NCBI GenBank assembly: GCA_945860945.1
Contig: CAMASG010000003.1
Coordinates: forward strand, 624-64,623
Source: Akkermansia muciniphila
GTDB taxonomy: Bacteria; Verrucomicrobiota; Verrucomicrobiia; Limisphaerales; SIAT01
Direction: 5' to 3'
DNA: 64,000 bases
A program made the position numbers and the translations under genes. Positions within the stretch are counted from its first letter, which is position 1; each line of letters opens with the position of its first letter. The notes beneath the pieces were generated by a model. The model saw nothing but the letters and a program-made list of their open reading frames with translations, searched no databases and was not told where the DNA came from. Positions 30,368-56,375 of the stretch are shown here, in pieces.

Positions 30368-31834
30368 ATGAAACGTGGACTTCAACTCGCGCTCCTCTTT
30401 TTCGGAATCGCCTTGCCCGCGCTGACCGGCCACGCCGCGCGCATCGGCGATCTCTCGGAGACGAATATCGCGGAACAGGCGCTGCGGTTCTTCACCTTTC
30501 AGGATCCCGCGGTGCGTTACGCGCTGCTCGGCTCGATCCTGCTCGGAATCACCTGTGGCCTGCTCGGCGGCTTCATCGTCGTGCGCAAGATGGCGCTGGT
30601 CGGCGATGCGCTTTCGCACGCGGTGTTGCCCGGTGTCGCGCTCGGTTTCCTCTGGAACATGAGCAAGGATCCCCTCGCCATCTTCATCGGCGCGGTGCTC
30701 GCCGGATTGCTCGGGGCGGCGGCGGTGCATCTGATTAAGCACACCACGAGGCTGAAGGAGGACACCGCGCTCGGCCTCGTGCTCGCCTCGTTCTTCGCCG
30801 TCGGCATCTGCCTCGTGACGATGATCCAGCGTCTGCCGACCGGAAACAAAAGCGGCATCGACAAGTTCCTCTTCGGCCAAGCCGCCGCCATCGGCGCCGG
30901 TGACGTGCAGCTCATGGCCGTCGTGACCGGCCTCGCCGTGCTGGTGATTCTGCTCTTCTACAAAGAATTTCTCCTGACGAGTTTCGACGCTGGGTTCGCG
31001 CGTGCGGCGGGGTTTCCAGTTCAAGCCATTCATTACACACTGATGCTCCTGCTCGCGTTCGCGATCGTCATCGCGTTGCAGGCCGTGGGTGTCGTGCTCG
31101 TCTCGGCGATGCTCATCACGCCCGCGGCGGCGGCGTATCTGCTCACCGACCGGATGCACCGGTTGCTCGCGTTGGCGGCGATCTTCGGACTATTCGCGGG
31201 CGCACTCGGGGCGTTCCTCTCGTTCCTGCGACCGAACCTCCCGACCGGCCCGCTGATGGTGCTTGCGGCGACGACGATCTTCGTACTCGCCTTCCTGTTC
31301 GGCCCACGCCATGGCGTGTTGGCGCGTTGGTGGCGGCAACGTTCGAGCGCGGCGCGCATTCAACGCGAGAACACGCTCAAGGCCGTGTATCACGTTCTGG
31401 AAGCGCGCGAATTCAAGGGCGAAGGAGTCTCGCTGCGCGAACTCGCCGAGCGCCGTCGCGAGACAGTGAAGGACGCGCGGCAACAGGCCGGCGAGTTGCG
31501 CCGGCACGACTTCGCCTCGCTGCAGGAAGATGGTAACGCAATCTATCTCACGCCGGAGGGTTGGCAGCGCGCCTGCGCCATCGTGCGCAACCACCGGCTT
31601 TGGGAGCTTTACCTCACCAACGCCGCGCACATCGCCGCGGATCATGTGCACGAGGACGCCGAGAAGATCGAGCACGTGCTCGGTGAAGAGGTCGTGCGGC
31701 TGATCGAGAAGCGGCTCAACTACGCCACGCGCGATCCGCACGGACGCTCCATCCCCGGCCTCGCGGATTTACGTCGAGGCGCGTCGCCGGAATCGCCGGC
31801 GTCGGGCCCCACTGGTTACGGGAGGTCCGCATGA
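30368..31834 (+). CDS. metal ABC transporter permease fused to a complete C-terminal DtxR/MntR-family repressor domain (YtgC-YtgR-like)
   Basis: 488 aa. Residues 1 to about 315 form a polytopic ABC-3 permease (DALSHAVLPGVALGF). From about residue 325 the sequence aligns by eye to DtxR: a wHTH region, then NHRLWELYL...HVHEDAEKIEHVLGEEVVRLIEKRL...DPHGRSIPG. Confidence 0.8.
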   Translation: MKRGLQLALLFFGIALPALTGHAARIGDLSETNIAEQALRFFTFQDPAVRYALLGSILLGITCGLLGGFIVVRKMALVGDALSHAVLPGVALGFLWNMSKDPLAIFIGAVLAGLLGAAAVHLIKHTTRLKEDTALGLVLASFFAVGICLVTMIQRLPTGNKSGIDKFLFGQAAAIGAGDVQLMAVVTGLAVLVILLFYKEFLLTSFDAGFARAAGFPVQAIHYTLMLLLAFAIVIALQAVGVVLVSAMLITPAAAAYLLTDRMHRLLALAAIFGLFAGALGAFLSFLRPNLPTGPLMVLAATTIFVLAFLFGPRHGVLARWWRQRSSAARIQRENTLKAVYHVLEAREFKGEGVSLRELAERRRETVKDARQQAGELRRHDFASLQEDGNAIYLTPEGWQRACAIVRNHRLWELYLTNAAHIAADHVHEDAEKIEHVLGEEVVRLIEKRLNYATRDPHGRSIPGLADLRRGASPESPASGPTGYGRSA

Positions 31835-32796
31835 ACGTGCTCGTGCCCGACTTCGATTTCCACCGCGTCTTCATCGCGCCGTGGACGGAGAATCTCGCTA
31901 GCTTCGGCTGGATCACGTTGATGGGCTTCCTCGTCACGGCGACGTGCGGGTGGGTCGGCAATTTCCTCATTCTGCGCCGAATGGCGCTCGTGGGCGATGC
32001 CATCAGCCACAGCGTGCTGCCGGGGTTGGCGGTCGCCTTCCTTCTCTCGCAGAGCCGCGGCACGCTGCCGATGTTCCTCGGCGCGCTGGTCGCGGGCATT
32101 GTCGCTACCGTGCTGATTGAGTTGATTCACAAGAAATCGCGTGTGAAACAGGACGCCGCCATCGGCATCGCCTTCACGAGCCTCTTCGCGCTCGGCGTCA
32201 TCCTCATCAATCTTTACGCGGGCAAAGGCGGCGTGGACCTCGACCAGGAATGCGTGCTCTACGGCGAGATCGCCTTTGTACCTTTGGAGCCGATGGTGAT
32301 GGTTGGGGGGCAAATCCTCGGGCCGATACCCGTGGTGCGGATGGGGTTTGTCGCGCTCGCCACCGCCTTGCTCATCGCGCTTTTCTACAAAGAACTTCTC
32401 GTCAGTTCGTTCGATCCCGCGCTCGCGGTCTCGCTCGGCATCAGCGCCACGTTCGTGCACTACGCGCTGATGGGCTGGCTCTCGGTGGTGGTGGTGAGTG
32501 CGTTTGAATCGGTCGGCGCGATTCTCGTCATCGCCATGCTCATCCTGCCCGGCGCCACCGCCACGCTCCTCTCGCACCGGCTGCCGGTGATGCTCGGGTT
32601 GACGCTCCTGCACGCGGCCTTGAGCGCCGTGCTTGGCATACACCTCGCGCTCTGGCTCGATTGCTCTCCAGCCGGAGCGATGGTCGTGGCCGGCACGCTG
32701 ATTTTCGTAGCAGCGTGGATCTTCAGCCCCAGCGAAGGACTGCTCCGCCGCTGGTTCCGAGCGCGGCTGGAAGCACCCGCTGTCGGCTCCAGCTGA
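31831..32796 (+). CDS. metal ABC transporter permease (second ABC-3 subunit)
   Basis: 321 aa overlapping the previous gene by 4 nt. It has DAISHSVLPGLAVAF and multiple TM helices. Confidence 0.85.
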   Translation: MNVLVPDFDFHRVFIAPWTENLASFGWITLMGFLVTATCGWVGNFLILRRMALVGDAISHSVLPGLAVAFLLSQSRGTLPMFLGALVAGIVATVLIELIHKKSRVKQDAAIGIAFTSLFALGVILINLYAGKGGVDLDQECVLYGEIAFVPLEPMVMVGGQILGPIPVVRMGFVALATALLIALFYKELLVSSFDPALAVSLGISATFVHYALMGWLSVVVVSAFESVGAILVIAMLILPGATATLLSHRLPVMLGLTLLHAALSAVLGIHLALWLDCSPAGAMVVAGTLIFVAAWIFSPSEGLLRRWFRARLEAPAVGSS

Positions 32797-33894: not shown

Positions 33895-34551
33895 TCACGG
33901 TCGCTTCTTGGCGACGGCGTTGGTTTTCGCTTCACTCATCGGCGCAAACTTCTGCGCGCGCTGGCTGGCTTCGAAAATCTGGTCGGGCAACATCTGCAGC
34001 GAGACCTGTTCGCGCGCGTGGTGCGCGGTCTCGTGTCCCTGCCGGATGGCGAGCGTGAGCCAGAAGTAAGCGTCGGCGAGATCGGTCTTCACACCTTTTC
34101 CCTCGGCGGCGGCGAGGCCGGAGTTGAACTGAGCAACAACGTGTCCCTGCGCAGCGGCGCGGCGGAACCAGCGGACGGCTTCGGCGGCGTCCTGCTTCAC
34201 GCCGTGACCGTCGAGGTGGAGTGTACCGAGATTGATTTGCGCGCTGGCGGAACCTTGCTCGGCAGATTTGCGATACCACGCGGCGGCTTCGGCAAAATCC
34301 TGTTTCACGCCCAACCCTTTCTCGAGCGCGGCCGCGAGGTAGAACTGCGCTTCGGCGTGGTTTCGATCGGCGGCTTTGCGTAACCACTTGGCGGCTTCAG
34401 TGGGATTGGCGTTGCCGTTCGCGGCGCCCAAGTCGAACTGGGCTTGGAGATCGCCCTTCTGCGCGCGTCGCTCGAGTTTTTCCAACTCGGTTTTCGGACT
34501 GCAACCGACGAGGAGCGCGACCGCGACGAGAAGTGGAACAAGTTGTTTCAA
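33895..34551 (-). CDS. Sel1-repeat lipoprotein
   Basis: This is the 3' part of ORF 33895..34965. A TTG at 34551 gives MKQLVPLLVAVALLVGC (lipobox). Sel1 repeats follow (GDLQAQFDLG..., AEAQFYLAAALEKGLGVKQDFAEAAAWYRKSAEQG, ASAQINLGTLHLDGHGVKQDAAEAVRWFRRAAAQG). The upstream part of the long ORF overlaps the next gene in another frame. Confidence 0.7.
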   Translation of the reverse strand: MKQLVPLLVAVALLVGCSPKTELEKLERRAQKGDLQAQFDLGAANGNANPTEAAKWLRKAADRNHAEAQFYLAAALEKGLGVKQDFAEAAAWYRKSAEQGSASAQINLGTLHLDGHGVKQDAAEAVRWFRRAAAQGHVVAQFNSGLAAAEGKGVKTDLADAYFWLTLAIRQGHETAHHAREQVSLQMLPDQIFEASQRAQKFAPMSEAKTNAVAKKRP

Positions 34552-34561
34552 GGCCGAGGAA

Positions 34562-35266
34562 TCACTTCTTCGGCTCGACCCGCTTGGCCGGCGCGTTGGT
34601 CTTCGCCGGTTCGATGACGGGCTTGGAGACGTCCTTTGTGGCGGGGCTTTTGGTCTTATCGTTCTTGGGCGCGTCTTTTTTTGGCGCGTCCTTCTTCTTG
34701 CTCGGCGGCTTGGAAGAGACGGGCGTGAACTCGGAGGAGAGCCGCTGTGCTTCGGTGATTTGCACCGCGGACATGCTATTGGCAAGGATGTCGCGGGCGC
34801 GTTCAGCGGCGGTGTCGCCCGCGCTGGCGGCGAGGTTGAGCCATTTGTAAGCTTCGACCCAATTCTTGTTGCCGAGGCTGGTGTCGCGCAGAACGAGTCC
34901 GAGCTGAGCCTGCGCATCGGCGAGTCCCTGCTCGGCTGCGGCGGTGAGCCACTTCGCAGCGGCACCGGCGTCTTTGCCCACGCCGTCGCCTTTCGCGTAA
35001 AGCTTGCCGAGAGCGGACTGCGCGCGCGCGTTGTTCTGTTCAGCCGATTTGCGGAACCACTTGGCGGCCTCGACGCTGCTCTTCGCGGTACCTTGGCCGC
35101 CGAGATGCATGTTGCCGAGGATGAGCTGGGCGTTGACGTCGCCTTTATCAGCCAGCGATTTGACGGTGCCGAAATCGAGCTCGTCGGCGCGCGCTCCGGA
35201 GGCGGCGAGCGTGGCGATGCAAGTGAAGGCGAGGAGAATCCAACGGCAGGAACGGCGGCTGTTCAT
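34562..35266 (-). CDS. secreted Sel1-repeat protein with a Lys/Pro-rich tail
   Basis: ORF 34562..35302; the likely start is ATG 35266 (MNSRRSCRWILLAFTCIATLAASGARA). It has Sel1 repeats (GDVNAQLILGNMHLGGQGTAKSSVEAAKWFRKSAEQN, ARAQSALGKLYAKGDGVGKDAGAAAKWLTAAAEQG). The tail reads KPPSKKKDAPKKDAPKNDKTK. Confidence 0.75.
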   Translation of the reverse strand: MNSRRSCRWILLAFTCIATLAASGARADELDFGTVKSLADKGDVNAQLILGNMHLGGQGTAKSSVEAAKWFRKSAEQNNARAQSALGKLYAKGDGVGKDAGAAAKWLTAAAEQGLADAQAQLGLVLRDTSLGNKNWVEAYKWLNLAASAGDTAAERARDILANSMSAVQITEAQRLSSEFTPVSSKPPSKKKDAPKKDAPKNDKTKSPATKDVSKPVIEPAKTNAPAKRVEPKK

Positions 35267-35378
35267 GGTGTCAAGATTATGAATCGGCACGGCAAACATC
35301 AAGCCGCATCTGGCGGCAACGAGAGGTCAGACGCGCTGCGACCCGCAGCCGTTACGTTTGGTTTGCCGTGCGCGTGGT

Positions 35379-38300
35379 TCAGGATTCTTTGCTCAAGGCA
35401 CGGCGGCCGAGTGCGACGAGGAACGCGAGCAGTGCCACGTAGAAGGAACCCCAGAGGACGCGGTTGAACACGCCGGGCGTCTCGAGATTGGCGGCGGCGA
35501 AGGTGATGGTCATCGCTTTGCCGGTCTCGGTCTGAAGCGCTTGCGCGAAGCCGAACTGAAGGCCGCGCTGGGGCAGGTTCACGCGGAGCGGCGAGACTTT
35601 GCTGCTCGTGACTTCCTGCGCCTTGTGAACCATCGCGAGCTGTTGCTCGGCGGTTTCGTTGTCATACAACACGAACGGTTTGCCGCTGGCCTTCTCGCGC
35701 GAGAGCTCTTCATCGAGTTGGAGGGATTGCTGGCCCTGCTCAGTGGCGAGGCGCTGGCGGAGGTTGAACGAGTAGGTGTTCTGCGCATCGACCAAGTTGC
35801 GGGCTTGCGCTTTCCGGATGTCTTTCTCGAGCTTCTTCACTTCCTCGTTGTTTTTACCGAGGTCGAGGTCGTTGTTCGCGCGATAGGTTTGGCTGAGAGC
35901 TTTGTTCGCCTCCTCGATGTTTCCTTTCTTGAGGTTCTCTTGGACGAAGTTAATCGATGAGGTGACGTCGGATCGGCGCTTGGCGCGGTTCTCGTCTTCC
36001 ACCTGCGAATAATCGGTCTGCGAGAAGACGCGGACCACTTGCGCGGCTCTCCGAGCCTCGCGGCTCATCGTACCCTCGAACTTCGCGTAATCGTAGGCGG
36101 GCGGCAGGAAGAGATCCCAGCGGGCATTCTTGAGCGGCACATCGAGCGTCGGCGCGGCGAGGGCGACTTTGCCGTTCCGTTCCGGGAACTGCACGCGGCC
36201 GATGAAGGTGATGTCGATCGGGATGGTCGCGCCTTCGCCGGAACGCTCCAGCGGTAGCAGCAGCTTGCCGCCGCGGTTGGTGGGCCGCACTGGTTGACCG
36301 GCGACGAACGCCGACCAGACTTCGGTCTGCTTGTCGGGCAGGGTGAGCTTAAGGAATTGCTTACCGTTGTTGCGCACGTTGAGCGTCATCTGGGTCATCA
36401 TCTGGCCATCCTCGGTGATGACGGAGACGAGGCTCGCGCTATCCACCAACGCTTGCAATACCTCGGCGGGGTCGTGGCTACGGGCGCGCACGGCGAGTTC
36501 GTAACCGGGCCGTAGATAGCGATAGGCGAGCGTGGCGGTATCGGTCGCTACGCCGGCCCATTCGGGGACCTCGCGCGAATCGATGGGGATGAGGTCGGTG
36601 CCGGCCTTGTCTTCCGCGACCTGCAACGGCGCGCGGGCATTGAAGATCAGCATGCCGGTCTCGCGTTCCACCTTCGGATCCACGCCCTGCGCGACGATCG
36701 GCAGCACCTTGAACGCTTCGCCTTTGGTCGCGTCGAAAGGCTGCTCCCACGTGACGGTGATCGTGTAGGTGCCGCGTTTCTTGTTCTGCAATTCCACGCG
36801 CCAGAGGTCACCCTGCTGGTCGCGGCGGCGGATATCCGAGCAGTTGATTTCCACGTTCTTGAAGCCGGCAGGGATGCGGAGCTGGAACTCCTTCGTCGGC
36901 GCGTTCGCGATTTCGTATTTCACGATCGCGCGGCCGCTCACGAGCGTATCCTGCACGGTGAGGACGGTGGCGATCTCGGCGCGCACCCACGAATCAATGC
37001 GCTCGGTGGCGACGCTGAGTTTCCACGCCGGCTGCGCGGTTGGCTCACCTGTGATGAACTTGAAGGCGAGCGTGCCTGCGATCGGCAAGGACATCATCTG
37101 TTGTTTCGATTGCGCTATCGGCGCGGTGTTCTGCGCGATGGGAGCCGCCGGCAACGCGCTCACGGGGATCTCCGTGAGCCCGTCGAAGTTCTCCGTCTTC
37201 ACCTGCACGCCTTCCTCGGCGGAGACGGCGACGAAGCCGGTGAGCTTCTGCACGCCGATCGGGTGCGCGCCAACCGCGCTGACCGACTTCGGCACTTCCT
37301 TGATGAGGAGGGCGAGGTCCACGCGCAACGGATAATGGCCGAGCATGCGCTCGGTGAGCGTAACTTCGACGATGCGGTTCGTCCCCTCGGTTTTCTCAAC
37401 CCACTGCGCCAGGCGATCGCCGATCACGCGCTCGACGCGGTAGCCGGCCGGCAGGAGTTGGCGCAGGGTGAAGACGCCGACGCGCTTGATGGTGTAATCA
37501 ATCTGGCTGCTGGAAAGAAGCTGGTCGGTCGTGATGCGCAGGTGATGATGCGCGACCGCTTCGATCTGGGGCTGAACGGCCTCGACACGGCCGGCGAGTA
37601 CGATGCCCGGCTTCAGGAAACGCCACGCGGTGGTGGCGACGTCCGGCAGCGCGACGGCGCGCGTGAATTCAGAGGTATCCACCTTCTGCAAATCGCTCGT
37701 GGTGTCGGCGACGAAGCTGAGGTCGTCGCTGGTCTTGATGCCGATGAAACCGGTCTCGCGTTTCACATCGAGCGCCTGCGGCACGGCGACCTTCACCACG
37801 GCGGGCGGCACGGCGAGCGGTTGTTCGAGATCGAGAAACACGCGCCACGCGGTCGCGACGCCTTTGGCCAGCTCGACGGTGAGGATGTTCTCGCCCTTCT
37901 CATCCGCGCTGCGCCACGTGCGCACGTGATCGCCTTCCACGCGCATCAACTTCTGACCAACAGGCAGGCGGATGCGGGCGGAACGCAGCTCGCCTTGCGT
38001 GATTTGGTAATCCAGCGTCGCGCGGCTGCGGATGACGCCACCTTCGAAACTCACGAGCACGGCGTTTTGCACGAAGACGGTCGCGGAGGTTTCTTCGGCC
38101 TTCTTCACGCGCGGCGTCCACGCCAACTCGAGATGATCGGCCGCGCCGATTGTTCCATCCACACGCGTCTGCTGCGCGGCCGGCGTGGTCTTGAAAGTGA
38201 CAGCGGTGGGCAGATCCACCACGGCCTCGGGCTCGTTCAGCGTGATGGCGAGCGTGCTCGTGAGCGCGGGCGGAATGGCGAAGCTCAACTGGCGCTTCGC

Positions 38301-41300
38301 GGCATCGCCAGTGAGGCGCGTGTGGAACTTCACTTTCACTTTCGCCGCGCCGGCTTCGGCCAACCAAAGCACGAGGCCGCGACCTTCACGGAGCAACTTC
38401 GCATCCTTGGCCGTGCTGGTAAAACTTTCGACTGCGACGTCGTCGCCGAAGAGCGGGAAACGCTGGCCTGCCTTGAGCGCGGTGAAATCGAAGTCCGCCT
38501 CGACCTCGGCCACTTGCTCGCGCACGGCCGCGGTATAGGTGGCGGTGAGGAGCGTGATCGCGTTCGTGACGCTGCCGACGGCAACACCGCGGTCATCGAA
38601 TAGCTCGAAGCTGAGCTGGCGACCTTCGTGCCAGAGGACTTCCTTCGAGGGCTTTCCGTTGACGTGCCAGAAACGGGCCAGCCCATGCGGTTCGCCGGTG
38701 AGATACGTCATCTCGCGTTCGGGCTTGCCGCTGGCGTGCCACGCGCGGCTCGCGCCGTGGCGTTTGCCGGCGGCGAAAGCGATCTCCTCGCTCTTCTGAC
38801 CGTTGCGGAACCACGTGGCGGTCACGCCGTCCGCGAGGCCGAGTTTGTAACCGGCTTCACGCGCCTTCTGGCCGTTGTCGAACCAGTGCGTCTCGATGCC
38901 TTCGGATTTACCGTCTTTGTAATTCGCCTCAAACCGGCGCTGCTTGTTCTCGAAGAACCCGACGACCTTGCCGGTGTACGACACTTCCTGATTGATCTCG
39001 AACTTGGTGCCGTTGCGATCCTGCAACTGCAACTCGCGGATGACGCGCGGGCCGCCGGGCACTTCGAGCGGCGTCTCGGGCAGCACGATGATTTCAATCG
39101 GTCGAGCCAATGCAGGCAACGCGACTGGCTGCGCGACGGCGGTTTGTACGATGAAGAATCCGAGGGCGAGAACGACCGCGGCGGGGATGACGGGCGTTTC
39201 AGCAGACGGCGGCGCGGTGGGCGGCGACTTCTTACGATTGTGCCAGAGTTTCGTGATGAGCCGCGTGACTTGCCAGAGCACGACCGCGGCGGTGAGCAGC
39301 AGCGGCAGCGCGATGAGTGCGTCGCCGAGCAGACGCTGCGAGAGCAGGAAGTAAGCGATCGAACCGAGCACGAGCGCGAGACCACCCGTGATGCGGAAGG
39401 TATCGCGGTGCACCTGCTGATATTGTTTCCAGAGCAGGAACAGGCCGGCGAGGAACGCGGCGACCTGTGCGAGCGCGCGGAGGATGCTGAACTTTTGCGT
39501 CTCCATCGCGAGCGCTTCGATGCGGAGCGGTTCGCGGTTCACGTTGAGCGCCTTCGTGAAAACGATGCGTTGGCCGCTGCGCGGAATCTCGACGCGAATC
39601 GGCCGGATGCCGGCAGCCATCGCCGCGCCTTCGCCCTTGTCACCACCAGCGACAGAACCCCAACCGGCGCCGCCGCCGCCGCCCGCGCGGCCATCCACAC
39701 CGCGCACCGTGCCCATGCCGCCCTGCGGTTGGCTCGGCTGTTGGTTGCTCGGAAGAACGACGGCGGCGAGCGCACCGCCAGTGACGGAAGTGCCGGGGCC
39801 GCTCATGGGCGGCTGGGAACCTGGTGTTGCCGCCTGAGCCTGAGGCAGCGGCGGCGGTGATTTCTTAGCGGGGGAAACCCGCGAAGCGGTGGCGGAAGAA
39901 GAGGGCTGATCGCTTTCGCGCATGGGCTCCCCTTTTTGTCCGAGTTGCTGTTGCCTGTCGGCGGGCCTTTCGGCTGGTGAATTTGCATCGGGCAGGCGCT
40001 CGAAACGATCCATGCGATCGCCGTTCGCGACTTTGGCTTCGAGGCGCTCACCTTCTCCAGCGGCGGCGTCGTAGAGGTCGAGGCCTGTGGGATTGCTGAC
40101 TTCGCCGCTGGTTCTCGAGGCCGCGTATTTATAGCTGCTGAGCGTGGGCAGAAGCATTCCGGAAAGCACGAGCAAGACGAGTGCGGTGACGGCCACGCGC
40201 GCGGCGGCGCGCCAACCGCGTTGGACGGCGGTGATGATGCCGTACAGAACCACAGCGAGTGCGATGAGAACCGCAGCGAGCGCGATGAACTCGGAGGCGT
40301 GTCGGCGATAGTAGGCGCGGCACTCGTTCCACGCATCGCGCCAGCCGTAGGTGGTGCCGCGAGCGACAATCATATTGCCGTCGAAGGCGCCGAGGCGCTG
40401 GTTGGCGGGGATGTAAAGCTCCCACTCATTGTAGGTGTTGGGCACGTCGTTGGTCGGCGCGGCGAGAGCGACCTTCACGGGGAAGAAACCGGTGATGCCA
40501 CGGCGGTCGAGCGGTGTGGTGTTCTGCGCATAGACGAGATCCACGGCGATGGTCTCGTTGCGGTTCGCGCCGCGCGGCAGCGGCACGAGATACGTGTCGC
40601 CTTCTTTTTCAATCTTGGCCGGCTGGTTGTTCACGTAAGCGCTCCAGAAAACGGCGCCGGGCGGCAACGTGAAACGCTGGAATTGTTTGTCGTTATTTTT
40701 CACCATGAACGACGCCTGCGTGAGCATCTGGCCTTGCTCGGTGAGAACGGTCGTGAGCTGGGTGCGGTCGGCCACGGCGGCGAGCACGGGCAATTCGGTG
40801 AAGCGCGTGACGGCCACCGCGAGGTCGTATTTCGCGCCTTCGTATTGATAGGCGAGAAGCACGGGGCGGGCGATGAGCGCGCGGTCGTTGGCGGAAAGCT
40901 CGGCTTCATCCACGCGCCGGAGGGATTCCATTTTCAAGGGCTTCAGCTCGAGGTTGGCAGCGCTGGTGATGGCCACGGCACCGGCCTCGCGGTCCACGCC
41001 GAGCACGTGCACGCCGCCGACGGGCAGCGTGGCTTTGTGGGGATCGAACTGGGCGTCGTAAGTGATGACGAGCGTGTAACCGCCCCACGCTTTTTCCTGC
41101 AAACTGACGGTCCAATCAGCGCTGATGGTGTTCGTCCCGACAGCAGCGGATTCTTTGCGGCGGATGTTCGGGCCGGTGAACTCGACGTTCTTCCACGCGA
41201 GCGGGACACGCACCTTGAACTCCTGCACACCTTGATTGAGGATGCCGTAGCGGATGGTGGCGCTGCCACCGAGTAGGCCGTCGCCGATGGTGACGAGATT

Positions 41301-42902
41301 GAAAACCTCCGCCGTGACACGCGCGGGAAGCTTCTCCGCGCCGAGTTTGAGCGACCAATCGGGCTGCTCGGCGGTGTACGCGAGCGATTCACCCGCGCGC
41401 AGGCCGACGTTGCTGACGGGCACTTCCCGTGCGCCGATGAGCGCGCCGGTCTTGAGCTGGATGCCCGCGGCGGCAGCGGCGCCGATTTGCGAAGTCTCCT
41501 TCACCGCACCGGTGGCGCGAAGCGCGGTGACGGTGAAGGATTCGGGGAACGTTTTGAGCGCCTGCTCGAGCTGCACTTCAATCTGGCGACGGCCGAGCAC
41601 GCGGCGCGCGAAATTCACGGTGAGCTTACCGCCGACGGCCTTCCAATCCTCGATGCCTTCGCCGGTGACGCTGGCGACGACGAAGTTGGTCTGCGGCGCG
41701 AACTCGAGCGAGTAGATGCCGGCCTTCTCCACGTTGAGCCCGAGCGAATGCGAGACGAGCAGGCGCGATTCCTCGAGGCGCACGGAGGCGCGGTTGGCGA
41801 GATTCACGACGGGGTCGATCTTGCGGAGCTTGAGAGCGAGCGAAAGATTTTGGCGTCCGAAGAATTGCCACGCGGCCACAGCGCCCGCGGCGGCGTTCAT
41901 CTGGCGCAAACCGGTCGCGGTATCGGTCTCCACCAGTACATCCTCGGCGGTGACGGAGAGGGTGCCGTTCTCGCGTTCGGTCTCGAGCGGTTGCGCGGGG
42001 ACGATGGCGGCGGTCGCGCCTTCGATGGCTTGTTCGGTGAAGAGGGTGAGAGCGTAATTTTTCTCAACCGGCTTGATGAAATCGATGGTGAGCGTCTGCC
42101 GACCGTTCTCGGCTTTCACCCGCCAATCGCGGATTTGTTCGCCCTGTAATTTGATGATCGCCTGCGTGGACGGAAGCGCGACGGTGAGGTTCGTCAACTT
42201 GCCTTGCACGATTTCGTAGCGGAGCTGCGTGGTGTATTTCGCGACGCTCGGCGTGACGTGCACGCTCGCGGCGGTCTCGGCGATGAGCAGCGCTTTGCGC
42301 GCTTCCTCGGCCGCTTTGCTCTGCCAACGCAGCGAGACGAGCCGGTCCGCACCGAGAAAACCGCGCACGGTGGATTTATCGGCGGCGGGCTGCGTGGTGC
42401 CGGAGAGAAGCTGCACTTCCATTCCGCCGGCGGCCTTCGCCGTGATGGCCGCGATGGCGGAGGCAGGGCCCGTGAAACTCGCGGAGCGCCACGGCTCGAG
42501 CTTGGAAACCTTCGCGGCCAGTTCGAACTTGGCCTGATAACGGCCCGGCTTGCTGATGACGAGGTGGTATTCCTGGCCGGTGCGGATGAGGCGCAGGCCG
42601 TCGGGGAAGGCGCCCGGCGCGGCGAGCACGGCCACGTTGCCACTGAAAAGCGGCAGCACACGCTCGCGGGCGGCGGTGGACTCGACCTCGATGCTCGTGG
42701 CGAAACGGGCATCGCTCTCGCCGAGCGTCCCTTCGTAGCGCACGGAGTGGATGGTGACGACCTCGGCGGCAGCGGTGGCATTCGTGGCGCCGGCCGGCGC
42801 CGGCTGCGCGTACAATGGCGCGGCGAGAGATAATAACAGGAGCGCGGATGCAGCGAGGAGGGCGCGATGGATGGTTTTGCTGATGAGGTTGGATCGCTTC
42901 AT
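35379..42902 (-). CDS. giant (2507 aa) internally duplicated envelope/membrane protein with MORN-variant repeats; family unknown
   Basis: A single uninterrupted ORF with natural amino-acid composition. It has an N-terminal signal peptide (…LAAPLYA|QP). Two paralogous modules span residues about 40-865 and about 1440-2290. A central cluster of about 6 TM helices and a P/Q/G/S-rich linker separate them. MORN/YwqK-type repeats occupy residues about 1300-1432. It ends with a C-terminal coiled-coil-like charged region and a terminal TM helix. Confidence 0.85.
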   Translation of the reverse strand: MKRSNLISKTIHRALLAASALLLLSLAAPLYAQPAPAGATNATAAAEVVTIHSVRYEGTLGESDARFATSIEVESTAARERVLPLFSGNVAVLAAPGAFPDGLRLIRTGQEYHLVISKPGRYQAKFELAAKVSKLEPWRSASFTGPASAIAAITAKAAGGMEVQLLSGTTQPAADKSTVRGFLGADRLVSLRWQSKAAEEARKALLIAETAASVHVTPSVAKYTTQLRYEIVQGKLTNLTVALPSTQAIIKLQGEQIRDWRVKAENGRQTLTIDFIKPVEKNYALTLFTEQAIEGATAAIVPAQPLETERENGTLSVTAEDVLVETDTATGLRQMNAAAGAVAAWQFFGRQNLSLALKLRKIDPVVNLANRASVRLEESRLLVSHSLGLNVEKAGIYSLEFAPQTNFVVASVTGEGIEDWKAVGGKLTVNFARRVLGRRQIEVQLEQALKTFPESFTVTALRATGAVKETSQIGAAAAAGIQLKTGALIGAREVPVSNVGLRAGESLAYTAEQPDWSLKLGAEKLPARVTAEVFNLVTIGDGLLGGSATIRYGILNQGVQEFKVRVPLAWKNVEFTGPNIRRKESAAVGTNTISADWTVSLQEKAWGGYTLVITYDAQFDPHKATLPVGGVHVLGVDREAGAVAITSAANLELKPLKMESLRRVDEAELSANDRALIARPVLLAYQYEGAKYDLAVAVTRFTELPVLAAVADRTQLTTVLTEQGQMLTQASFMVKNNDKQFQRFTLPPGAVFWSAYVNNQPAKIEKEGDTYLVPLPRGANRNETIAVDLVYAQNTTPLDRRGITGFFPVKVALAAPTNDVPNTYNEWELYIPANQRLGAFDGNMIVARGTTYGWRDAWNECRAYYRRHASEFIALAAVLIALAVVLYGIITAVQRGWRAAARVAVTALVLLVLSGMLLPTLSSYKYAASRTSGEVSNPTGLDLYDAAAGEGERLEAKVANGDRMDRFERLPDANSPAERPADRQQQLGQKGEPMRESDQPSSSATASRVSPAKKSPPPLPQAQAATPGSQPPMSGPGTSVTGGALAAVVLPSNQQPSQPQGGMGTVRGVDGRAGGGGGAGWGSVAGGDKGEGAAMAAGIRPIRVEIPRSGQRIVFTKALNVNREPLRIEALAMETQKFSILRALAQVAAFLAGLFLLWKQYQQVHRDTFRITGGLALVLGSIAYFLLSQRLLGDALIALPLLLTAAVVLWQVTRLITKLWHNRKKSPPTAPPSAETPVIPAAVVLALGFFIVQTAVAQPVALPALARPIEIIVLPETPLEVPGGPRVIRELQLQDRNGTKFEINQEVSYTGKVVGFFENKQRRFEANYKDGKSEGIETHWFDNGQKAREAGYKLGLADGVTATWFRNGQKSEEIAFAAGKRHGASRAWHASGKPEREMTYLTGEPHGLARFWHVNGKPSKEVLWHEGRQLSFELFDDRGVAVGSVTNAITLLTATYTAAVREQVAEVEADFDFTALKAGQRFPLFGDDVAVESFTSTAKDAKLLREGRGLVLWLAEAGAAKVKVKFHTRLTGDAAKRQLSFAIPPALTSTLAITLNEPEAVVDLPTAVTFKTTPAAQQTRVDGTIGAADHLELAWTPRVKKAEETSATVFVQNAVLVSFEGGVIRSRATLDYQITQGELRSARIRLPVGQKLMRVEGDHVRTWRSADEKGENILTVELAKGVATAWRVFLDLEQPLAVPPAVVKVAVPQALDVKRETGFIGIKTSDDLSFVADTTSDLQKVDTSEFTRAVALPDVATTAWRFLKPGIVLAGRVEAVQPQIEAVAHHHLRITTDQLLSSSQIDYTIKRVGVFTLRQLLPAGYRVERVIGDRLAQWVEKTEGTNRIVEVTLTERMLGHYPLRVDLALLIKEVPKSVSAVGAHPIGVQKLTGFVAVSAEEGVQVKTENFDGLTEIPVSALPAAPIAQNTAPIAQSKQQMMSLPIAGTLAFKFITGEPTAQPAWKLSVATERIDSWVRAEIATVLTVQDTLVSGRAIVKYEIANAPTKEFQLRIPAGFKNVEINCSDIRRRDQQGDLWRVELQNKKRGTYTITVTWEQPFDATKGEAFKVLPIVAQGVDPKVERETGMLIFNARAPLQVAEDKAGTDLIPIDSREVPEWAGVATDTATLAYRYLRPGYELAVRARSHDPAEVLQALVDSASLVSVITEDGQMMTQMTLNVRNNGKQFLKLTLPDKQTEVWSAFVAGQPVRPTNRGGKLLLPLERSGEGATIPIDITFIGRVQFPERNGKVALAAPTLDVPLKNARWDLFLPPAYDYAKFEGTMSREARRAAQVVRVFSQTDYSQVEDENRAKRRSDVTSSINFVQENLKKGNIEEANKALSQTYRANNDLDLGKNNEEVKKLEKDIRKAQARNLVDAQNTYSFNLRQRLATEQGQQSLQLDEELSREKASGKPFVLYDNETAEQQLAMVHKAQEVTSSKVSPLRVNLPQRGLQFGFAQALQTETGKAMTITFAAANLETPGVFNRVLWGSFYVALLAFLVALGRRALSKES

Positions 42903-43129
42903 AAAGGGGTTGGGTAAATCAATCCGCGCTTCCGGTCAGCAGGGGCGCGATGGATGGGCTTTTTATCAGTTCAACTTCCGTTTGCCAGTTCAAAGTGGCC
43001 GCGAGAAATCCCTTCCGGCCAAACGTGAGACGGCACGCCGCCCGCGAAAACTCCCACGGATATTTCCGCCGCGCGAGGGAAAGGCTGGATTCTTCGGCGC
43101 GTCCGGCTAAGCTCGATGAATCTGACTTT

Positions 43130-43756
43130 GTGACCGGACTGGATGAGAACGCATTGATTACGCGCTGCCTGCGGGGTGAGGCGGCGGCGTGGGATGAGGT
43201 GTTCGACCGCCATTACTCGGCGACCGGCCGCTTCGTGCTGCAGCTCGCGCCGAGTTTCACGCCCGAGGATGCCGAGGAAGTTTGCCAAGAAGCCTTCCTC
43301 TCCGTCATCAAGCACCTCGCTAATTTCAACCGCCGCAGCCAGCTTCAGACGTGGATCTTCCGCATCGCTGCAAACAAAGCGCGCGATTACCGTTCCAAAC
43401 AATCCGCCGAGAAACGCGGCGGTGGCCAGACGCTACTCTCGCTCCATCCTGAGCCGGGCGAAGACACGCCAGCCATCGACCCCGCTAGCCCGCTCCCCTC
43501 GCCGGATGTCGCGCTGCTCCGCGCCGAGCAGTGGAAATTCGTCGGGCAGGCGCTCGAGGAATTGGGCGGTCCGTGTCAGGAAATTCTCGAGCTCCGCTAC
43601 TTCGCCGACCTTGATTACAAAGAGATCAGCGTCGCGCTCGATTTGAACGAGAAGACAGTCAGTTCGCGCCTCAGCAAATGCCGCGACAAATTCGAGGCCG
43701 CGCTGCGCCGCGTTTTTTTGCGGGAGAAAATCGACGGTTTGCCGTCCAACCGATAG
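43130..43756 (+). CDS. ECF-type RNA polymerase sigma-70 family factor
   Basis: ORF 42950..43756. The first 60 codons look non-coding, so I prefer GTG 43130. Region 2 reads EAFLSVIKHLANFNRRSQLQTWIFRIAANKARDY. Region 4 reads ILELRYFADLDYKEISVALDLNEKTVSSRLSKCRDKF. Confidence 0.8.
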   Translation: MTGLDENALITRCLRGEAAAWDEVFDRHYSATGRFVLQLAPSFTPEDAEEVCQEAFLSVIKHLANFNRRSQLQTWIFRIAANKARDYRSKQSAEKRGGGQTLLSLHPEPGEDTPAIDPASPLPSPDVALLRAEQWKFVGQALEELGGPCQEILELRYFADLDYKEISVALDLNEKTVSSRLSKCRDKFEAALRRVFLREKIDGLPSNR

Positions 43757-43762: not shown

Positions 43763-45262
43763 ATGACTAACGAACCTCAAAATCAGGGTGAACAGTGGCT
43801 CAAAGCCTACGCGCAACAGCGCCGAGCCGAGGCTGCGCAGAGCAAGCCCGAGCTGCATCCCGCCACGCGCCGCCTGCTGCAGTCCGAAGTTGCGCGCACC
43901 CACCTTGCGAAGGACGCCGCCTTCGCCACTTCCACCGCGAGCGCCGCGGTGCCAATGGAGAGCGGCGGGTTGTTTGGTCGATGGGCATTCAACGCGCTTG
44001 CGCTGGCTGCGGTGGGGGTTGTCGCCGCCGTGCTCGGTGTCATTATCAGTGACGCGCCGCGCACCAAGCCTGCCCAGTTTGCTGGCACACCGAAGCCTGT
44101 TGGTGAGATTTTAAAATTGGAGAAATCTTCGGAAACCGAGAGCGTTCTCACGTGGACTATTCCGACGCGGAAAGCGGCCGGTGAATCCACACTCGCCAAC
44201 ACCGTCGCGACTGCGACACCAGCGGCTAACGCGCCGATCGCTCCGACTGCGCCGCCGAAACTGGATGGCGTGGCCTCCGCGGGAGCGGGCGGTGGCGCCG
44301 CGTCCAGTTTGGCAAAAGCGTCCGCGCAGCCAACCGAGTCCGCATCTGCCCCGGCGCCGGCCGACAGCAGTTCCACCAGTAATCCGAAGGTGCGTCTGAC
44401 GAGTCGCGCCGCTATGCGCAGCGCGACCGGCGAACCGCTCGCGACTGCTTCGGGTAAATTGGATAAAGCACCGTCGGCCGTTGCGACTTCGGTGGCCGTC
44501 AAAGAAAAAGAAAGCGCGACGAAGGCGGACGCACTCATTGAGCCGAACAAAAATTTGATGGCCGCGAAGAAAGCCGCTGCGCTGGGCGGATCGATTACGC
44601 CGGTTGCGCCGGCAGCGTCCAGTCCGGTTCAGGCGGGTCTTGTCGCGGGCCTCGCGGAGTCGAAACAGAAGTTGGGGGAGGCGAACGCAGAGGGGCAGGC
44701 GATGTCGCGCTTGCAACAGAATTTCTCGCAGTCAGCCCCGCGGGATCAGGCTTATCGGCGCAACCTGAACGCGCCGGGCGAGCCGCGTGTGCTAGTGAAT
44801 TTTCAACTCGAGCGCGAAGGTAATGTGGTGCGCGTAGTGGATGGAGATGGCTCGATCTATCTCGGCAACGTGGCTGGTGAGGTGGGGCGCAAGCTCGCGC
44901 CCGACACTCGGCGCAAAGATGTTCAGAATGTGCCGGCCAAACGCGAGGAGTTGGATCGCGCGTTGCAGTTGGACCAAGAGCAGGCCAAGTCGTTGAACGA
45001 CGGGTTCAATTTCCAAGTCGTCGGAACGAACCGCAGCCTGCGCCAGCGCGTGGTGTTCGAGGGGAATTATCAGAATTATCAAACCCAGGGGCTGGAGCTG
45101 AAAGGCGCGGCGTTCAAGGACACGACGAATCAGTTGTCGCGTTCAAACAAAGATGCCAAGCAGCAATCGCAGCAATCGCCTGTGGGCGCGCCGCGAGTGC
45201 AGGGGCGTGCGGTGATTGGCGGCAATCGCATCGAGGTGGACGCCGTGCCGGTCAGCAAGTAA
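43763..45262 (+). CDS. single-pass membrane protein in anti-sigma position (non-zinc type), with a large extracytoplasmic region
   Basis: 499 aa starting 7 nt after the sigma stop. A short N-terminal cytoplasmic segment is followed by one TM helix (WAFNALALAAVGVVAAVLGVIIS). An Ala/Ser/Pro-rich stretch of about 250 aa comes next. A structured C-terminal part follows (VLVNFQLEREGNVVRVVDGDGSIYLGNV...FNFQVVGTN...VQGRAVIGGNRIEVDAVPVSK). There is no HxxxCxxC motif. Confidence 0.6.
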   Translation: MTNEPQNQGEQWLKAYAQQRRAEAAQSKPELHPATRRLLQSEVARTHLAKDAAFATSTASAAVPMESGGLFGRWAFNALALAAVGVVAAVLGVIISDAPRTKPAQFAGTPKPVGEILKLEKSSETESVLTWTIPTRKAAGESTLANTVATATPAANAPIAPTAPPKLDGVASAGAGGGAASSLAKASAQPTESASAPAPADSSSTSNPKVRLTSRAAMRSATGEPLATASGKLDKAPSAVATSVAVKEKESATKADALIEPNKNLMAAKKAAALGGSITPVAPAASSPVQAGLVAGLAESKQKLGEANAEGQAMSRLQQNFSQSAPRDQAYRRNLNAPGEPRVLVNFQLEREGNVVRVVDGDGSIYLGNVAGEVGRKLAPDTRRKDVQNVPAKREELDRALQLDQEQAKSLNDGFNFQVVGTNRSLRQRVVFEGNYQNYQTQGLELKGAAFKDTTNQLSRSNKDAKQQSQQSPVGAPRVQGRAVIGGNRIEVDAVPVSK

Positions 45263-47749: not shown

Positions 47750-48940
<1,191 letters not shown>

Positions 48941-48958
48941 TTCAAGGAAAAATTGTTC

Positions 48959-48993
48959 GGGCGCGGAGGCGCGAAACCTCCGCCCCGATTTTT
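48959..48993 (+). terminator. Rho-independent terminator/attenuator after tuf
   Basis: GC-rich imperfect hairpin GGGCGCGGAGG-CGCGAAA-CCTCCGCCCCG followed by ATTTTT. Confidence 0.5.
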
Positions 48994-49045
48994 CGTCTAA
49001 AACAAACAGACACGAAACCAACAGGACCTCCGTCAGTGACAGGCA

Positions 49046-49118
49046 ACGGCGTTAGCTCAATTGGCAGAGTAGCGGTCTCCAAAACCGTTGGTTGGGGGTT
49101 CGACTCCCTCACGCCGTG
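49046..49118 (+). tRNA. tRNA-Trp (anticodon CCA)
   Basis: Manual cloverleaf: acceptor ACGGCGT/ACGCCGT, anticodon arm GCGGT-CTCCAAA-ACCGT, T-arm GGGGG-TTCGACT-CCCTC. CCA is encoded at 49119-49121. This is the classical position between tuf and secE. Confidence 0.85.
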
Positions 49119-49137
49119 CCAATCACAATTCACCCAC

Positions 49138-49224
49138 GGAGGGGTGGCAGAGTGGTCTAATGCGGCGGTCTTGAAAACCGCTGTGGGCTAACGCTCACCG
49201 GGGGTTCGAATCCCTCCCCCTCCG
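49138..49224 (+). tRNA. tRNA-Ser (anticodon TGA), class II with a long variable arm
   Basis: Acceptor GGAGGGG/CCCCTCC, anticodon arm GCGGT-CTTGAAA-ACCGC, variable stem GTGGGC/GCTCAC, T-arm GGGGG-TTCGAAT-CCCTC. CCA is encoded at 49225-49227. Confidence 0.8.
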
Positions 49225-49236
49225 CCAAACGCGAAA

Positions 49237-49515
49237 ATGGAAACGCTTAGCAAATACAGCACGTACCTCTGGGTCGCGGCACTCGCGACCGGGTTCGGAA
49301 TTCTTTGGCGGATGGGTTATCTCACCCGCGTGCGCGACTTCGTGCTCGAAACCCGTGAAGAGCTTCGCAAGTGCTCGTGGCCGACGATGGAAGAACTGAA
49401 GGACCACACTGTCGTCGTACTATTCACCATCCTGCTCCTCGGTGCTTTCACCGTGCTGGCCGACCTACTCGTGCGCTTCGGCGTGTGGGATTTGTTGCTC
49501 GGCGCTAACCTTTGA
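49237..49515 (+). CDS. secE: preprotein translocase subunit SecE
   Basis: 92 aa. It has the conserved R-x-E-L-x-K-x-x-W-P segment (TREELRKCSWPTMEEL) followed by a TM helix, and sits directly upstream of nusG. Confidence 0.85.
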   Translation: METLSKYSTYLWVAALATGFGILWRMGYLTRVRDFVLETREELRKCSWPTMEELKDHTVVVLFTILLLGAFTVLADLLVRFGVWDLLLGANL

Positions 49516-49529
49516 CCGCACCCATTCCT

Positions 49530-50078
49530 ATGCATAGCCAATGGTTTGTCATTCACACGCTTGCCGGTCAGGAGCAGAAGGTCAAAGACAGCATCGAGAA
49601 GCGTCTCAAGGCTGAGGAGATGGGCGAGTACATCAAGGAAGTCCTCGTGCCGATGGAGAAGGTGGCCGAGGTGCGTGCCGGCAAAAAGACCGTCACCAAC
49701 CGCAAACTTTATCCGGGTTACGTTTTCATCGACATCGCGCTGCTGGACGAGAACAAGCGCATCATCGAGAAGCCGTGGTATTTTATTCGCGAGACGCAGG
49801 GCATCATCGGTTTCGTCGGTGGCGACCGTCCTTCTCCGACATCGGAAGATGAGATGGCCAGCATCAAGGCGCAGATCGCCGAGAGCGATGAGGGCGAGAA
49901 GCCCAAGATGCATTTTGCTGTGGGCGAAAACGTCAAGATCAACGACGGCCCCTTCATCAGTTTCAGCGGCCTCATCGAGGAGATCGATCCCGAGAAGGGC
50001 AAGCTCAAGGTTTCAGTCAACATTTTCGGCCGCAATACGCCGGTCGAGCTCGAGTACTGGCAGATCGAGAAAGCTTAA
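49530..50078 (+). CDS. nusG: transcription termination/antitermination factor NusG
   Basis: ORF 49512..50078 (TTG start). ATG 49530 gives MHSQWFVIHTLAGQEQKVK, the typical NusG N-terminus. A KOW motif lies near the C-terminus (GENVKINDGPFISFSGLIEEID). Confidence 0.92.
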   Translation: MHSQWFVIHTLAGQEQKVKDSIEKRLKAEEMGEYIKEVLVPMEKVAEVRAGKKTVTNRKLYPGYVFIDIALLDENKRIIEKPWYFIRETQGIIGFVGGDRPSPTSEDEMASIKAQIAESDEGEKPKMHFAVGENVKINDGPFISFSGLIEEIDPEKGKLKVSVNIFGRNTPVELEYWQIEKA

Positions 50079-50090
50079 GGAAACGTTGTT

Positions 50091-50516
50091 ATGGCTAAGA
50101 AGAAAATCGGCGAAATCAAACTTCAGATCCCAGCTGGGCAGGCGAACCCCGCCCCGCCGGTCGGCCCCGCGCTCGGTCAGCACGGCGTCAACATCATGGC
50201 GTTCTGCAAAGAGTTCAATGCCCGCACGAAGGATCAGGCTGGCCTGATCATCCCGGCCGTTATCTCTGTCTATCAGGACAAGTCCTTCACCTTCATCACC
50301 AAGAGCCCGCCGGCAGCGGTTTTGCTCAAGAAAGCCGCGGGCATTGCTTCCGGCTCCAAGACGCCGAACAAGGAAAAGGTCGGCACGGTGACCCGCAAGC
50401 AGGTGCTCGACATCGTCAAGATCAAGCTCGCGGACATGAATTCCACGAACGAGGAGGCCGCCTTCCGCGTCATCTCCGGCACCGCCCGCAGCATGGGCAT
50501 CGTAGTTCTCGACTAG
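50091..50516 (+). CDS. rplK: 50S ribosomal protein L11
   Basis: 141 aa with [35 protein letters not shown]. Confidence 0.97.
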
Positions 50517-50574
50517 TAAGTAAACAAAACCGCGGGAGGGCCGTCAAAAAGCCCGATTGCACCGCACCCATACA

Positions 50575-51267: not shown

Positions 51268-51287
51268 TCCGAACTGGAGACACTCTC

Positions 51288-51773: not shown

Positions 51774-51904
51774 ACCAAACCAATTTCGGGACTGCCTTGG
51801 ATGGCGGTGTCGGAGAAACCAAACAACAACAAACAGTAAATCGTCGGTCCACGGGCAGTGGACCAATTCGCCGCGGCCGCGGTGACGACGAGACGAAAGA
51901 TAAT

Positions 51905-52279: not shown

Positions 52280-52295
52280 TTTTGGAGTGAAGGCT

Positions 52296-56330: not shown

Positions 56331-56375
56331 ACTCTGGTCAACTGAACTTTGGTGCTGAACTTGGAATAAAACCAA

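Follow-up and report, generated by a model that had tools for sequence, protein, structure and literature searches.

This report concerns a giant open reading frame (ORF; nucleotides (nt) 35379–42902, minus strand, stop codon included) in a 64,000-nt stretch of bacterial DNA (contig CAMASG010000003.1 of assembly GCA_945860945.1, positions 624 to 64,623), to which we refer as the window. Its 2507-residue product consists of two paralogous units, each of which represents a whole ancestral protein: a signal peptide, a large module, a linker, a membrane-adjoining β-hairpin and a transmembrane (TM) anchor. The simplest reading of the sequence comparisons described below is that the giant gene arose by fusion of two adjacent paralogous genes. 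Our overall reading, namely that the product is a non-enzymatic periplasmic element made from two fused paralogous units and induced by an extracytoplasmic function (ECF) sigma factor, is one that we consider moderately likely to be right; we are near certain of its structural and evolutionary part, and hold its functional part only weakly.

When residues 1–1000 were compared with residues 1301–2507 by BLASTP, a single alignment was obtained, between residues 49–844 (module A; nt 40371–42758) and 1449–2279 (module B; nt 36066–38558), with 245 identities in 858 columns (29%), a score of 280 bits and an E-value of 8e-83; for 100 shuffled versions of module B, the maximum score was 25.8 bits. The duplication is thus confirmed, and these values bear out the claim of an earlier, sequence-only reading of this DNA that two paralogous modules are fused head-to-tail. 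The blocks of similarity which that reading had quoted are found at the residues it named, and its module limits (about 40–865 and 1440–2290) are correct to within about 10 residues. It had also proposed a constant offset of 1442–1444 residues between the two copies. This holds for the blocks at 561 (E561/E2005, offset 1444), 683 (LAYQYEG, 683/2125) and 735 (K735/R2177; offset 1442 for both), but not for the final block (KVALAAPT, 810/2245; WELYIP, 827/2262), where the offset is 1435. The repeat is moreover larger than had been proposed, in that it also takes in a tail hairpin, a TM helix and a second signal-peptide-like segment.

The continuous ORF is no assembly accident, because an identical protein, relatives of like length and a syntenic locus all exist. 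A search of a 5.8-billion-protein collection returned the identical protein (P0001) and 433 relatives; the ‘120 homologues’ cited below are the best 120 listed, comprise P0001 and 119 further full-length proteins, and are 2144–2710 residues long. Those that share 75–79% identity with the giant protein have 2491–2525 residues. In addition, a locus scan that took one genome per species yielded 201 stretches encoding a relative, of which the best 80 loci were kept; gene calls in these loci are ORF-based, and the taxon labels of metagenome-assembled genomes (MAGs) are unreliable. One of them (L001), from an independent Lake Baikal Pedosphaera MAG, contains the same ORF and neighbors in a syntenic arrangement, with a module A that is 88% identical. 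The notion that two genes were artificially joined through an assembly or sequencing error could draw on the internal signal-peptide-like segment and on the existence of relatives with unfused units (see below for both), but its probability is negligible: the ORF is continuous in the best 120 homologues, which come from independent samples, there are 57 ORFs of more than 2000 residues among the best 80 of the 201 loci, and the 2507 codons of the window gene run for 7.5 kb without a stop or a change of frame.

The domain map supports the view that each unit is a complete protein (coordinates are all on the minus strand; signal peptides were called by direct reading of the sequence and a permissive AXA-type rule). 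The first unit begins with a signal peptide (residues 1–32, hydrophobic at 14–32, site LYA↓QP; nt 42807–42902). Module A is followed by a TM hairpin, which we recognize from hydrophobicity and comparison with relatives (TM1, residues 872–890, and TM2, 903–921; nt 40140–40289), and by a low-complexity linker rich in Gly, Ala, Pro and Ser (residues 922–1095; nt 39618–40139). Next comes the membrane-adjoining tail motif 1 (IRPIRVEIPRSGQRIVFTKALNVNREPL..., residues 1099–1133; nt 39504–39608), and then TM3–TM5 (residues 1139–1157, 1169–1187 and 1191–1209; nt 39276–39488), which form the junction between the units. The second unit opens with an internal signal-peptide-like element (nt 39135–39242) that has a basic n-region (HNRKK, residues 1221–1225), a short h-region that coincides with TM6 (residues 1238–1256) and an AXA-type c-region with the candidate cleavage site AVA↓QP at 1257/1258 (i.e., HNRKK...VIPAAVVLALGFFIVQTAVA↓QP). 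Module B, the paralogue of module A, leads into a long, α-helical, coiled-coil-like linker (residues 2295–2431; nt 35610–36020; AlphaFold2 model me67ace700798), tail motif 2 (SPLRVNLPQRGLQFGFAQALQTETGKAM..., residues 2437–2471; nt 35490–35594) and a C-terminal TM anchor, TM7 (residues about 2478–2506; nt 35385–35471), which is evident from both hydrophobicity and the AlphaFold2 model. The two tail motifs, one before TM3 and one before the last TM helix, share the consensus P-[LI]-R-[VI]-x-[LI]-P-x-x-G...F-[TA]-[KQ]-x-L; when their family profiles were aligned by hhalign, the probability was 95.9% (E 5e-9).

If the signal peptide is removed, the positive-inside rule would place the basic loops (QRGWR, WKQYQQVHRDTFR, KLWHNRKK and the C-terminal GRRALSK) in the cytoplasm, and the only arrangement that fits is one in which both modules, the tail hairpins and both linkers lie outside. 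This predicted seven-TM topology agrees with the envelope or periplasmic location put forward in the sequence-only reading.

A rival interpretation, which we consider quite possible although we would not bet on it, is that the fusion exists at the gene level only: signal peptidase I would cut at 1257/1258 and so produce two membrane proteins in a 1:1 ratio that form a heterodimer. In its favor, an equivalent internal segment with n-region, short h-region and AXA-type site is present in 115 of the 120 best homologues, the N-terminal and internal sites of the window protein both read A↓QP, and the second gene of unfused relatives opens with a normal signal peptide. Against it, the rule by which sites were called is permissive, and an internal signal-anchor that follows other TM helices often stays uncut.

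The window protein departs from most of its relatives at two points in this map. The start of module B lies a median of 8.5 residues past the h-region in the other homologues, while in the window clade (P0001–P0004) an insertion of about 185 residues separates the two. This insertion contains probable MORN_2 repeats (PF07661; residues about 1309–1429, nt 38616–38978; 29.4 bits against a gathering cut-off of 29.6, E 5.9e-7), and precomputed PF07661 annotation is likewise confined to P0001–P0004. The second point is TM2, which comparison with relatives identifies as the remnant of a pilin-like helix. In most relatives such a helix follows module A and is itself followed by a small pseudopilin-like domain, which the window protein has lost. 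That domain resembles the DUF1559/H-X9-DG prepilin-like proteins of Planctomycetes and Verrucomicrobia in its LLPALSKAK...NNLKQIGLA...VLFADGHV signature, and in one relative (P0057) it scores 28.1 bits with DUF1559 (cut-off 23.3); GspG and HX9DG models fall below cut-off in the relatives, and none of those inspected has an intact prepilin cleavage motif (G↓FTLIE). By analogy with real pseudopilins, the domain would lie outside the cytoplasm. It is an insert and not the repeated module. DUF1559 and prepilin models have no match in the window protein, where the pilin-like helix alone remains. Literature searches that covered verrucomicrobial DUF1559 proteins and the paper reclassifying ECF sigma factors turned up nothing about the giant-protein family.

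In a subfamily of giant proteins, module A is preceded by some 250 extra N-terminal residues that include a LamG/concanavalin-like lectin domain (PF13385) (loci L004, L012, L016, L025 and others; proteins P0009, P0054 and P0055). Accessory domains thus sit at the N-terminal tip of the module in both units: LamG before A and, in the window clade, MORN before B.

The fused architecture is strongly conserved. An A-type and a B-type module occur in the same order in all of the best 120 homologues (Verrucomicrobiota, Pedosphaerales/Limisphaerales). The A modules of orthologues share about 57% identity, as against about 28% for A and B of one and the same protein, which makes the duplication an old one that preceded the spread of the family. 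The best 80 loci are labelled Pedosphaera, Limisphaerales or subdivision 3 (Verrucomicrobiota), and the host of the window protein is a Pedosphaera-like bacterium. Contigs with a giant gene of Verrucomicrobiota type are also found under the labels Bifidobacterium, Klebsiella, Haliangiales, Proteobacteria and Akkermansia muciniphila (e.g., L010, L021, L033, L069, L073 and L025); these MAG contig labels in public assemblies are probably wrong. Among 1.84 billion representatives of 50%-identity clusters, a profile that covers both modules matched 8126 clusters at a threshold of E≤1e-3 and 2897 at one of E≤1e-30. The top 150 are mostly two-module proteins of 2100–2600 residues, and the short ones inspected among them are fragments at contig ends. 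The giant protein, in which the sequence-only reading had seen a candidate for a new system, is therefore not a one-off but a member of a very large, uncharacterized family of the Planctomycetes–Verrucomicrobia–Chlamydiae (PVC) group. Fused proteins of 2100–2500 residues are also present in MAGs labelled Planctomycetota.

The sequence-only reading had suggested looking for relatives that encode the two halves as adjacent separate genes, and we found them at three kinds of locus. In L083 (73% guanine plus cytosine, GC), two adjacent genes on the same strand encode proteins of 1532 and 1453 residues; the module profile recognizes both (E 4e-87 and 2e-207), and their mutual identity is 25% over 947 columns. 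In L084/L085 (GC 71%), the genes encode 1594 and 1457 residues; both products open with a signal peptide, and that of the first gene ends in the tail motif and a TM helix. Finally, L086, from a MAG labelled Planctomycetes, has a separate gene for unit 2 (1363 residues), upstream of which ORFs encode a pilin-like TM hairpin, a coiled coil, the tail motif and TM helices, i.e., the end of unit 1. The GC-rich relatives with unfused units are probably planctomycetal. Since the paralogues are always adjacent or fused, a 1:1 partnership is suggested.

Most other short family members are not single-module proteins: they begin or end inside a module and are fragments. Two individual candidates were rejected, P0198, which begins 53 nt from the contig end in a frame that is open to that end, and P0168, which lacks a start codon; among the short members inspected, only P0254, P0260, P0270 and P0278 are complete. 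The 1.1-kb spacer between the unfused genes of L084 (8940–10001) contains a direct duplication; the Arg- and Pro-rich ORF of 353 residues called there, in which a segment of about 85 residues is repeated twice, is unlikely to be a real gene.

We also obtained AlphaFold2 models, for which the alignment input was 33 sequences only. That of module A (mean predicted local distance difference test, pLDDT, 83.7) contains about 60 strands and almost no helix, and describes a string of five β-sandwich domains: d1 (residues 45–200), d2 (201–340), d3 (341–505), d4 (506–675) and d5 (676–835). Their counterparts in module B are d1 (1445–1602), d2 (1603–1755), d3 (1756–1943), d4 (1944–2118) and d5 (2118–2270). 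A model of the C-terminal residues 2090–2507 (pLDDT 79.4, and above 90 in d5 of module B) shows d5, long helices, tail motif 2 as a β-hairpin, and a TM helix. When the A+B alignment was cut at low-confidence linkers and the pieces were compared by hhalign, d2, d3 and d4 proved to be mutually homologous versions of a domain of about 150 residues (probabilities 98.6–99.2%, E 1e-16 to 1e-19); d5 is weakly related to d3 (83%), and hhalign found no relation between d1 and the other domains. The modules thus do not have the unknown fold that the sequence-only reading attributed to them; according to these models, their fold class would be an ordinary and common one, with the family itself still unplaced.

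Ost1/ribophorin I is the top Foldseek match of both models (8b6l_O, E 3.5e-9; 6ezn_A, E 3e-7). Against the PDB, module A matched Ost1/ribophorin I (E 3.5e-9 to 1e-7), integrin α legs and μ-homology domains, with TM-scores of 0.1–0.3 and 7–12% identity; for the C-terminal model, Ost1 was followed by the N-terminal β-domain of M1 aminopeptidases. Like the giant protein, Ost1 has a signal peptide, tandem non-cytoplasmic β-sandwiches and a TM anchor, and it plays a non-catalytic scaffold role, but the resemblance is at the level of fold only (8–11% identity, TM-scores 0.17–0.33). Ost1 further differs in having two domains and not five, and it belongs to a eukaryotic glycosylation complex for which nothing speaks here. 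As for the other matches, d5 aligns with the N-domain of M1 aminopeptidases (LTA4H, ERAP1/2, APN) over 150–190 columns with a root-mean-square deviation down to 3–5 Å, and integrin α leg domains align along the whole module; identities of 6–18% reflect generic sandwich topology, and the zinc-peptidase domain of the aminopeptidases is absent from the giant protein.

Sequence searches of Pfam, NCBIfam and the PDB with the giant protein and with an A+B profile built from 13 sequences gave no match on either module (the whole protein was scanned at E≤1 for Pfam and E≤0.1 for NCBIfam), and the modules of four relatives were likewise without a Pfam or NCBIfam match. Two further claims of the sequence-only reading thereby stand: the modules belong to no family with a Pfam, NCBIfam or PDB sequence match, and they carry no catalytic motif, insofar as the Pfam and NCBIfam scans yielded no match to an enzyme family. 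The Pfam scan also gave no match to BatD (PF13584), fn3 (PF00041) or Ribophorin_I (PF04597). A kinship with DUF4139 (PF13598), which we had suspected from the pattern of strands and loops and from neighboring genes in L012, L016 and L025, was rejected: the module profile and each of its domains gave hhalign probabilities below 1% against 12 DUF4139 ORFs from related loci, and hmmscan found no DUF4139 in the giant protein.

Long tandem β-sandwich arrays may bring to mind the stalks of giant repeat adhesins, and a cell-surface or secreted adhesin directed at external substrates would be consistent with the lectin domain at the N-terminus of some relatives and with a weak match, through the MORN repeats, to a leptospiral adhesin model. 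We nevertheless regard an adhesin as improbable: the seven TM segments and C-terminal anchor fit an inner-membrane protein, the Pfam and NCBIfam scans show only MORN_2 and weak sub-threshold matches with no known outer-membrane, sorting or secretion domain, and ORF clustering of the 80 loci revealed no conserved secretion genes adjoining the giant gene.

Another key set of observations concerns regulation. Divergent from the giant gene lies a gene (nt 43130–43756, plus strand; the ORF is listed from 42950, with a GTG at 43130 as the likely start) whose product matches Sigma70_r2 (45.7 bits), r4_2 (37.8 bits) and TIGR02937 (94.3 bits; cut-off 42.9), and which is recognizable by these matches as an ECF sigma factor with regions 2 and 4 only. 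Orthologues that are 54–63% identical are divergent from the giant gene in 24 of the 60 loci with at least 3.5 kb of upstream sequence; among the best 80 loci, an ECF gene was detected in 22 by ORF clustering and in 29 by tblastn. The next gene (nt 43763–45262, plus strand) encodes a single-pass membrane protein of 499 residues, which we presume to be an anti-sigma factor on the grounds of gene position, a single TM helix and co-occurrence with the ECF gene (25 loci); it has no Pfam or NCBIfam match, and hence no recognized anti-sigma domain (zf-HC2, RskA etc.). The order of a sigma factor with regions 2 and 4 and then a single-pass membrane protein is that of known ECF sigma/anti-sigma envelope modules, from which the window locus differs in that the promoter-like motif described next precedes the anti-sigma gene and not the sigma gene.

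The region upstream of the giant gene carries, on the sense strand, a conserved motif, GGAGCATT-N12-CCGTCT. Of 29 matches to the strict pattern in 1.4 Mb, about 24 immediately precede a giant gene. When up to two mismatches are allowed, 44 of 73 loci have the motif in the 1.1 kb before the gene, the background being 0.03 matches in a stretch of that length (the relaxed pattern matched 78 times in real and 36 times in shuffled sequence). It is typical of ECF promoters that the −35 reads AAC next to a T-tract and the −10 reads CGTC (PMC5758882); the motif shows both the CGTC −10 and the T-tract beside the −35. In 36 of the 44 loci, an ATG or GTG follows 7–8 nt past the −10 hexamer (e.g., L018, 9679–9713; L039, 9916–9950; L051, 9907–9941), a spacing that implies a leaderless or nearly leaderless mRNA and suggests that transcripts of the putative ECF regulon are leaderless in most relatives. 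The window has one copy before the giant gene (GGAGTTTT-N13-CCGTCT, nt 43028–43054, minus strand), 126 nt upstream of the ATG, which would imply a leader of about 118 nt in the window clade (L001 is alike), and another before the anti-sigma gene (GGAGAAAA-N11-CCGTCC, nt 43723–43747, plus strand), 16 nt from its ATG; the placement before the anti-sigma gene is the same in L029, L031 and L062. Elsewhere the motif heads VIT-vWA genes, 34 nt before the start (L002, L029 and L036), and precedes DUF4139 genes (L012 and L016) and, in L002, a gene for an MG2-domain (α-2-macroglobulin-like) protein. That the adjacent sigma factor reads the motif is what we infer from their linkage and from the type of motif.

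VIT-vWA genes in relatives show the same spacing of the start codon after the −10 as the giant gene. In L002, copies on the plus strand at 7419, 9656, 16809 and 20581 stand before a pair of genes for 178 and 447 residues (no Pfam match), the giant gene, the VIT-vWA gene and the MG2 gene, respectively; the locus has the look of a regulon for large periplasmic proteins gathered in one place. Two other candidate elements were discarded. The k-mers from a first upstream screen (GTCTGGGGCAA and others) are coding sequence of the LamG extension in some relatives and no regulatory element, and the classical GAAC-N14-19-CGTC pattern has almost no matches, the motif that we found having AGC in its −35.

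Through the conserved ECF-type motif before the giant and anti-sigma genes, these data support the proposal of the sequence-only reading that the ECF pair is dedicated to the giant gene, and do so better than that reading could have foreseen; the pair is, however, adjacent to the giant gene in no more than the 24 loci mentioned above. They also bear on a different possibility, that the giant protein is a sensor which feeds the ECF/anti-sigma pair and is not its target. The divergent arrangement in those 24 of 60 loci would suit a sensor, and large periplasmic domains could bind ligands. We find such a role very doubtful nonetheless: an ECF-type motif on the sense strand directly upstream of both the giant gene and unrelated envelope genes is the signature of a regulon member, and the adjacent pair is absent from most loci. 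The roles of sensor and target are mutually compatible.

The wider genomic context of the family is variable. ORF clustering of the 80 loci identified the ECF gene as a recurrent neighbor and, in subsets, a MoxR trio (10–11 loci), VIT-vWA (about 5–6) and DUF4139 (3). Of the 55 loci with enough downstream sequence, 11 have the trio of moxR (AAA_3), duf58 and transglutaminase/DUF4129 right behind the giant gene, moxR starting 17–135 nt past the giant stop codon (as measured in L044, L051, L045 and L032). The bifidobacterial PFNA cluster has the order pkb2-fn3-moxR-duf58-tgm (PMC8430577). Its logic of regulator-fn3-moxR-duf58-tgm is matched in these 11 loci by (ECF pair)-giant-moxR-duf58-transglutaminase/DUF4129. 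BatD of the Bat (aerotolerance) operon is likewise a large β-sandwich membrane protein encoded beside moxR-duf58; the comparison with the window is limited in both cases, in that the giant protein has no BatD or fn3 match and the window has no MoxR trio. What BatD and the PFNA cluster do is, to our knowledge, itself not settled.

We hypothesize the following scheme. Two adjacent paralogous genes would have fused, with the second signal peptide kept as an internal TM segment, which signal peptidase I may still cut to give two chains. The product would be anchored in the inner membrane. Having no catalytic domain, it would have a structural, scaffolding or binding role in the periplasm, and its arms probably lie side by side as the two halves of a pseudo-heterodimer. 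The divergent ECF sigma factor would most likely drive the giant gene through the GGAGCATT-N12-CCGTCT promoter, and we propose that the motif before the anti-sigma gene provides negative feedback. The ECF motif, the motif-headed VIT-vWA, DUF4139 and α-2-macroglobulin-like genes and the MoxR trio together suggest an envelope maintenance or defence set, to which the giant protein would belong along with other large periplasmic binding or inhibitor-like proteins. A bolder version holds that an obligate pseudo-heterodimeric wall or rod spans the periplasm and forms the core of a PVC-specific envelope defence and repair apparatus, which a dedicated ECF factor would induce, mostly through leaderless transcripts, and which would be assembled with the VIT-vWA, DUF4139, α-2-macroglobulin-like and MoxR-DUF58-transglutaminase proteins; this we think unlikely.

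A number of observations weigh against the non-enzymatic, ECF-induced periplasmic element that we favor. On the evolutionary side, L082 contains a complete single-module gene (1231 residues) with no partner visible, and fission within the unfused clade is an alternative to fusion, the direction being not proven either way. On the structural side, the predicted template modelling score of the module A model is only 0.41, for which reason the mutual arrangement of its domains is not defined, and the Foldseek TM-scores of at most 0.33 represent generic β-sandwich similarity only. Regarding regulation, 36 of the 60 related loci lack an adjacent ECF pair. Copy 1 of the motif in the window has two mismatches in its −35 part, its distance from the ATG is unlike the leaderless spacing in most relatives, and the −35 core of the motif reads AGC instead of the usual AAC. 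None of the genes for the MoxR trio, VIT-vWA or DUF4139 is in the 64-kb window. Finally, what the protein does, whether its arms pair, whether it is cleaved and whether the sigma factor controls its gene are matters of deduction, whereas architecture, duplication, conservation, unfused forms, β-sandwich fold, lack of a catalytic family match and motif enrichment were seen directly in the comparisons described above.

The giant proteins are among the longest in Pedosphaerales/Limisphaerales genomes and form a large family without a Pfam or NCBIfam model and without a solved relative by sequence. What was a hypothetical protein now has a domain map, a membrane topology, a fusion history with unfused forms, and a candidate promoter motif that ties its gene to an ECF sigma factor and to VIT-vWA, DUF4139, α-2-macroglobulin-like and MoxR-trio genes. 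Should the regulon prove true, it would be among the first defined envelope-stress circuits in Verrucomicrobiota and an example of mostly leaderless ECF targets; should it not, there is still a clean case of duplication and fusion with a retained internal signal peptide. The giant protein is no unique system; what makes it of value is a clean fusion history together with the candidate ECF regulon.

Downstream of the giant gene, the window has two Sel1-repeat ORFs and then nadA. The Sel1 ORFs (nt 33895–34965 and 34562–35302, both minus strand) overlap by about 400 nt in different frames, and L001 shows the same two-frame pattern (tblastn, 10786–11499 and 11376–12167); they are either two adjacent genes, the second starting near 34540, or one frameshifted gene. 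On the other side, a run of same-strand ORFs (nt 47750–63763, plus strand) starts with EF-Tu, which Pfam confirms, and includes ORFs of 1277 and 1377 residues; from the sizes and order of its ORFs it looks like an ordinary secE-nusG, ribosomal protein, rpoB-rpoC and rpsL-rpsG-fusA cluster. Lastly, an ABC-3 (Mn/Zn-type) permease (nt 30368–31834, plus strand) carries a C-terminal Fe_dep_repr_C metal-binding/dimerization domain (77.5 bits), and a second ABC-3 permease follows at 31831–32796; the combination of a transporter subunit and a DtxR-type sensor domain in one protein is unusual.

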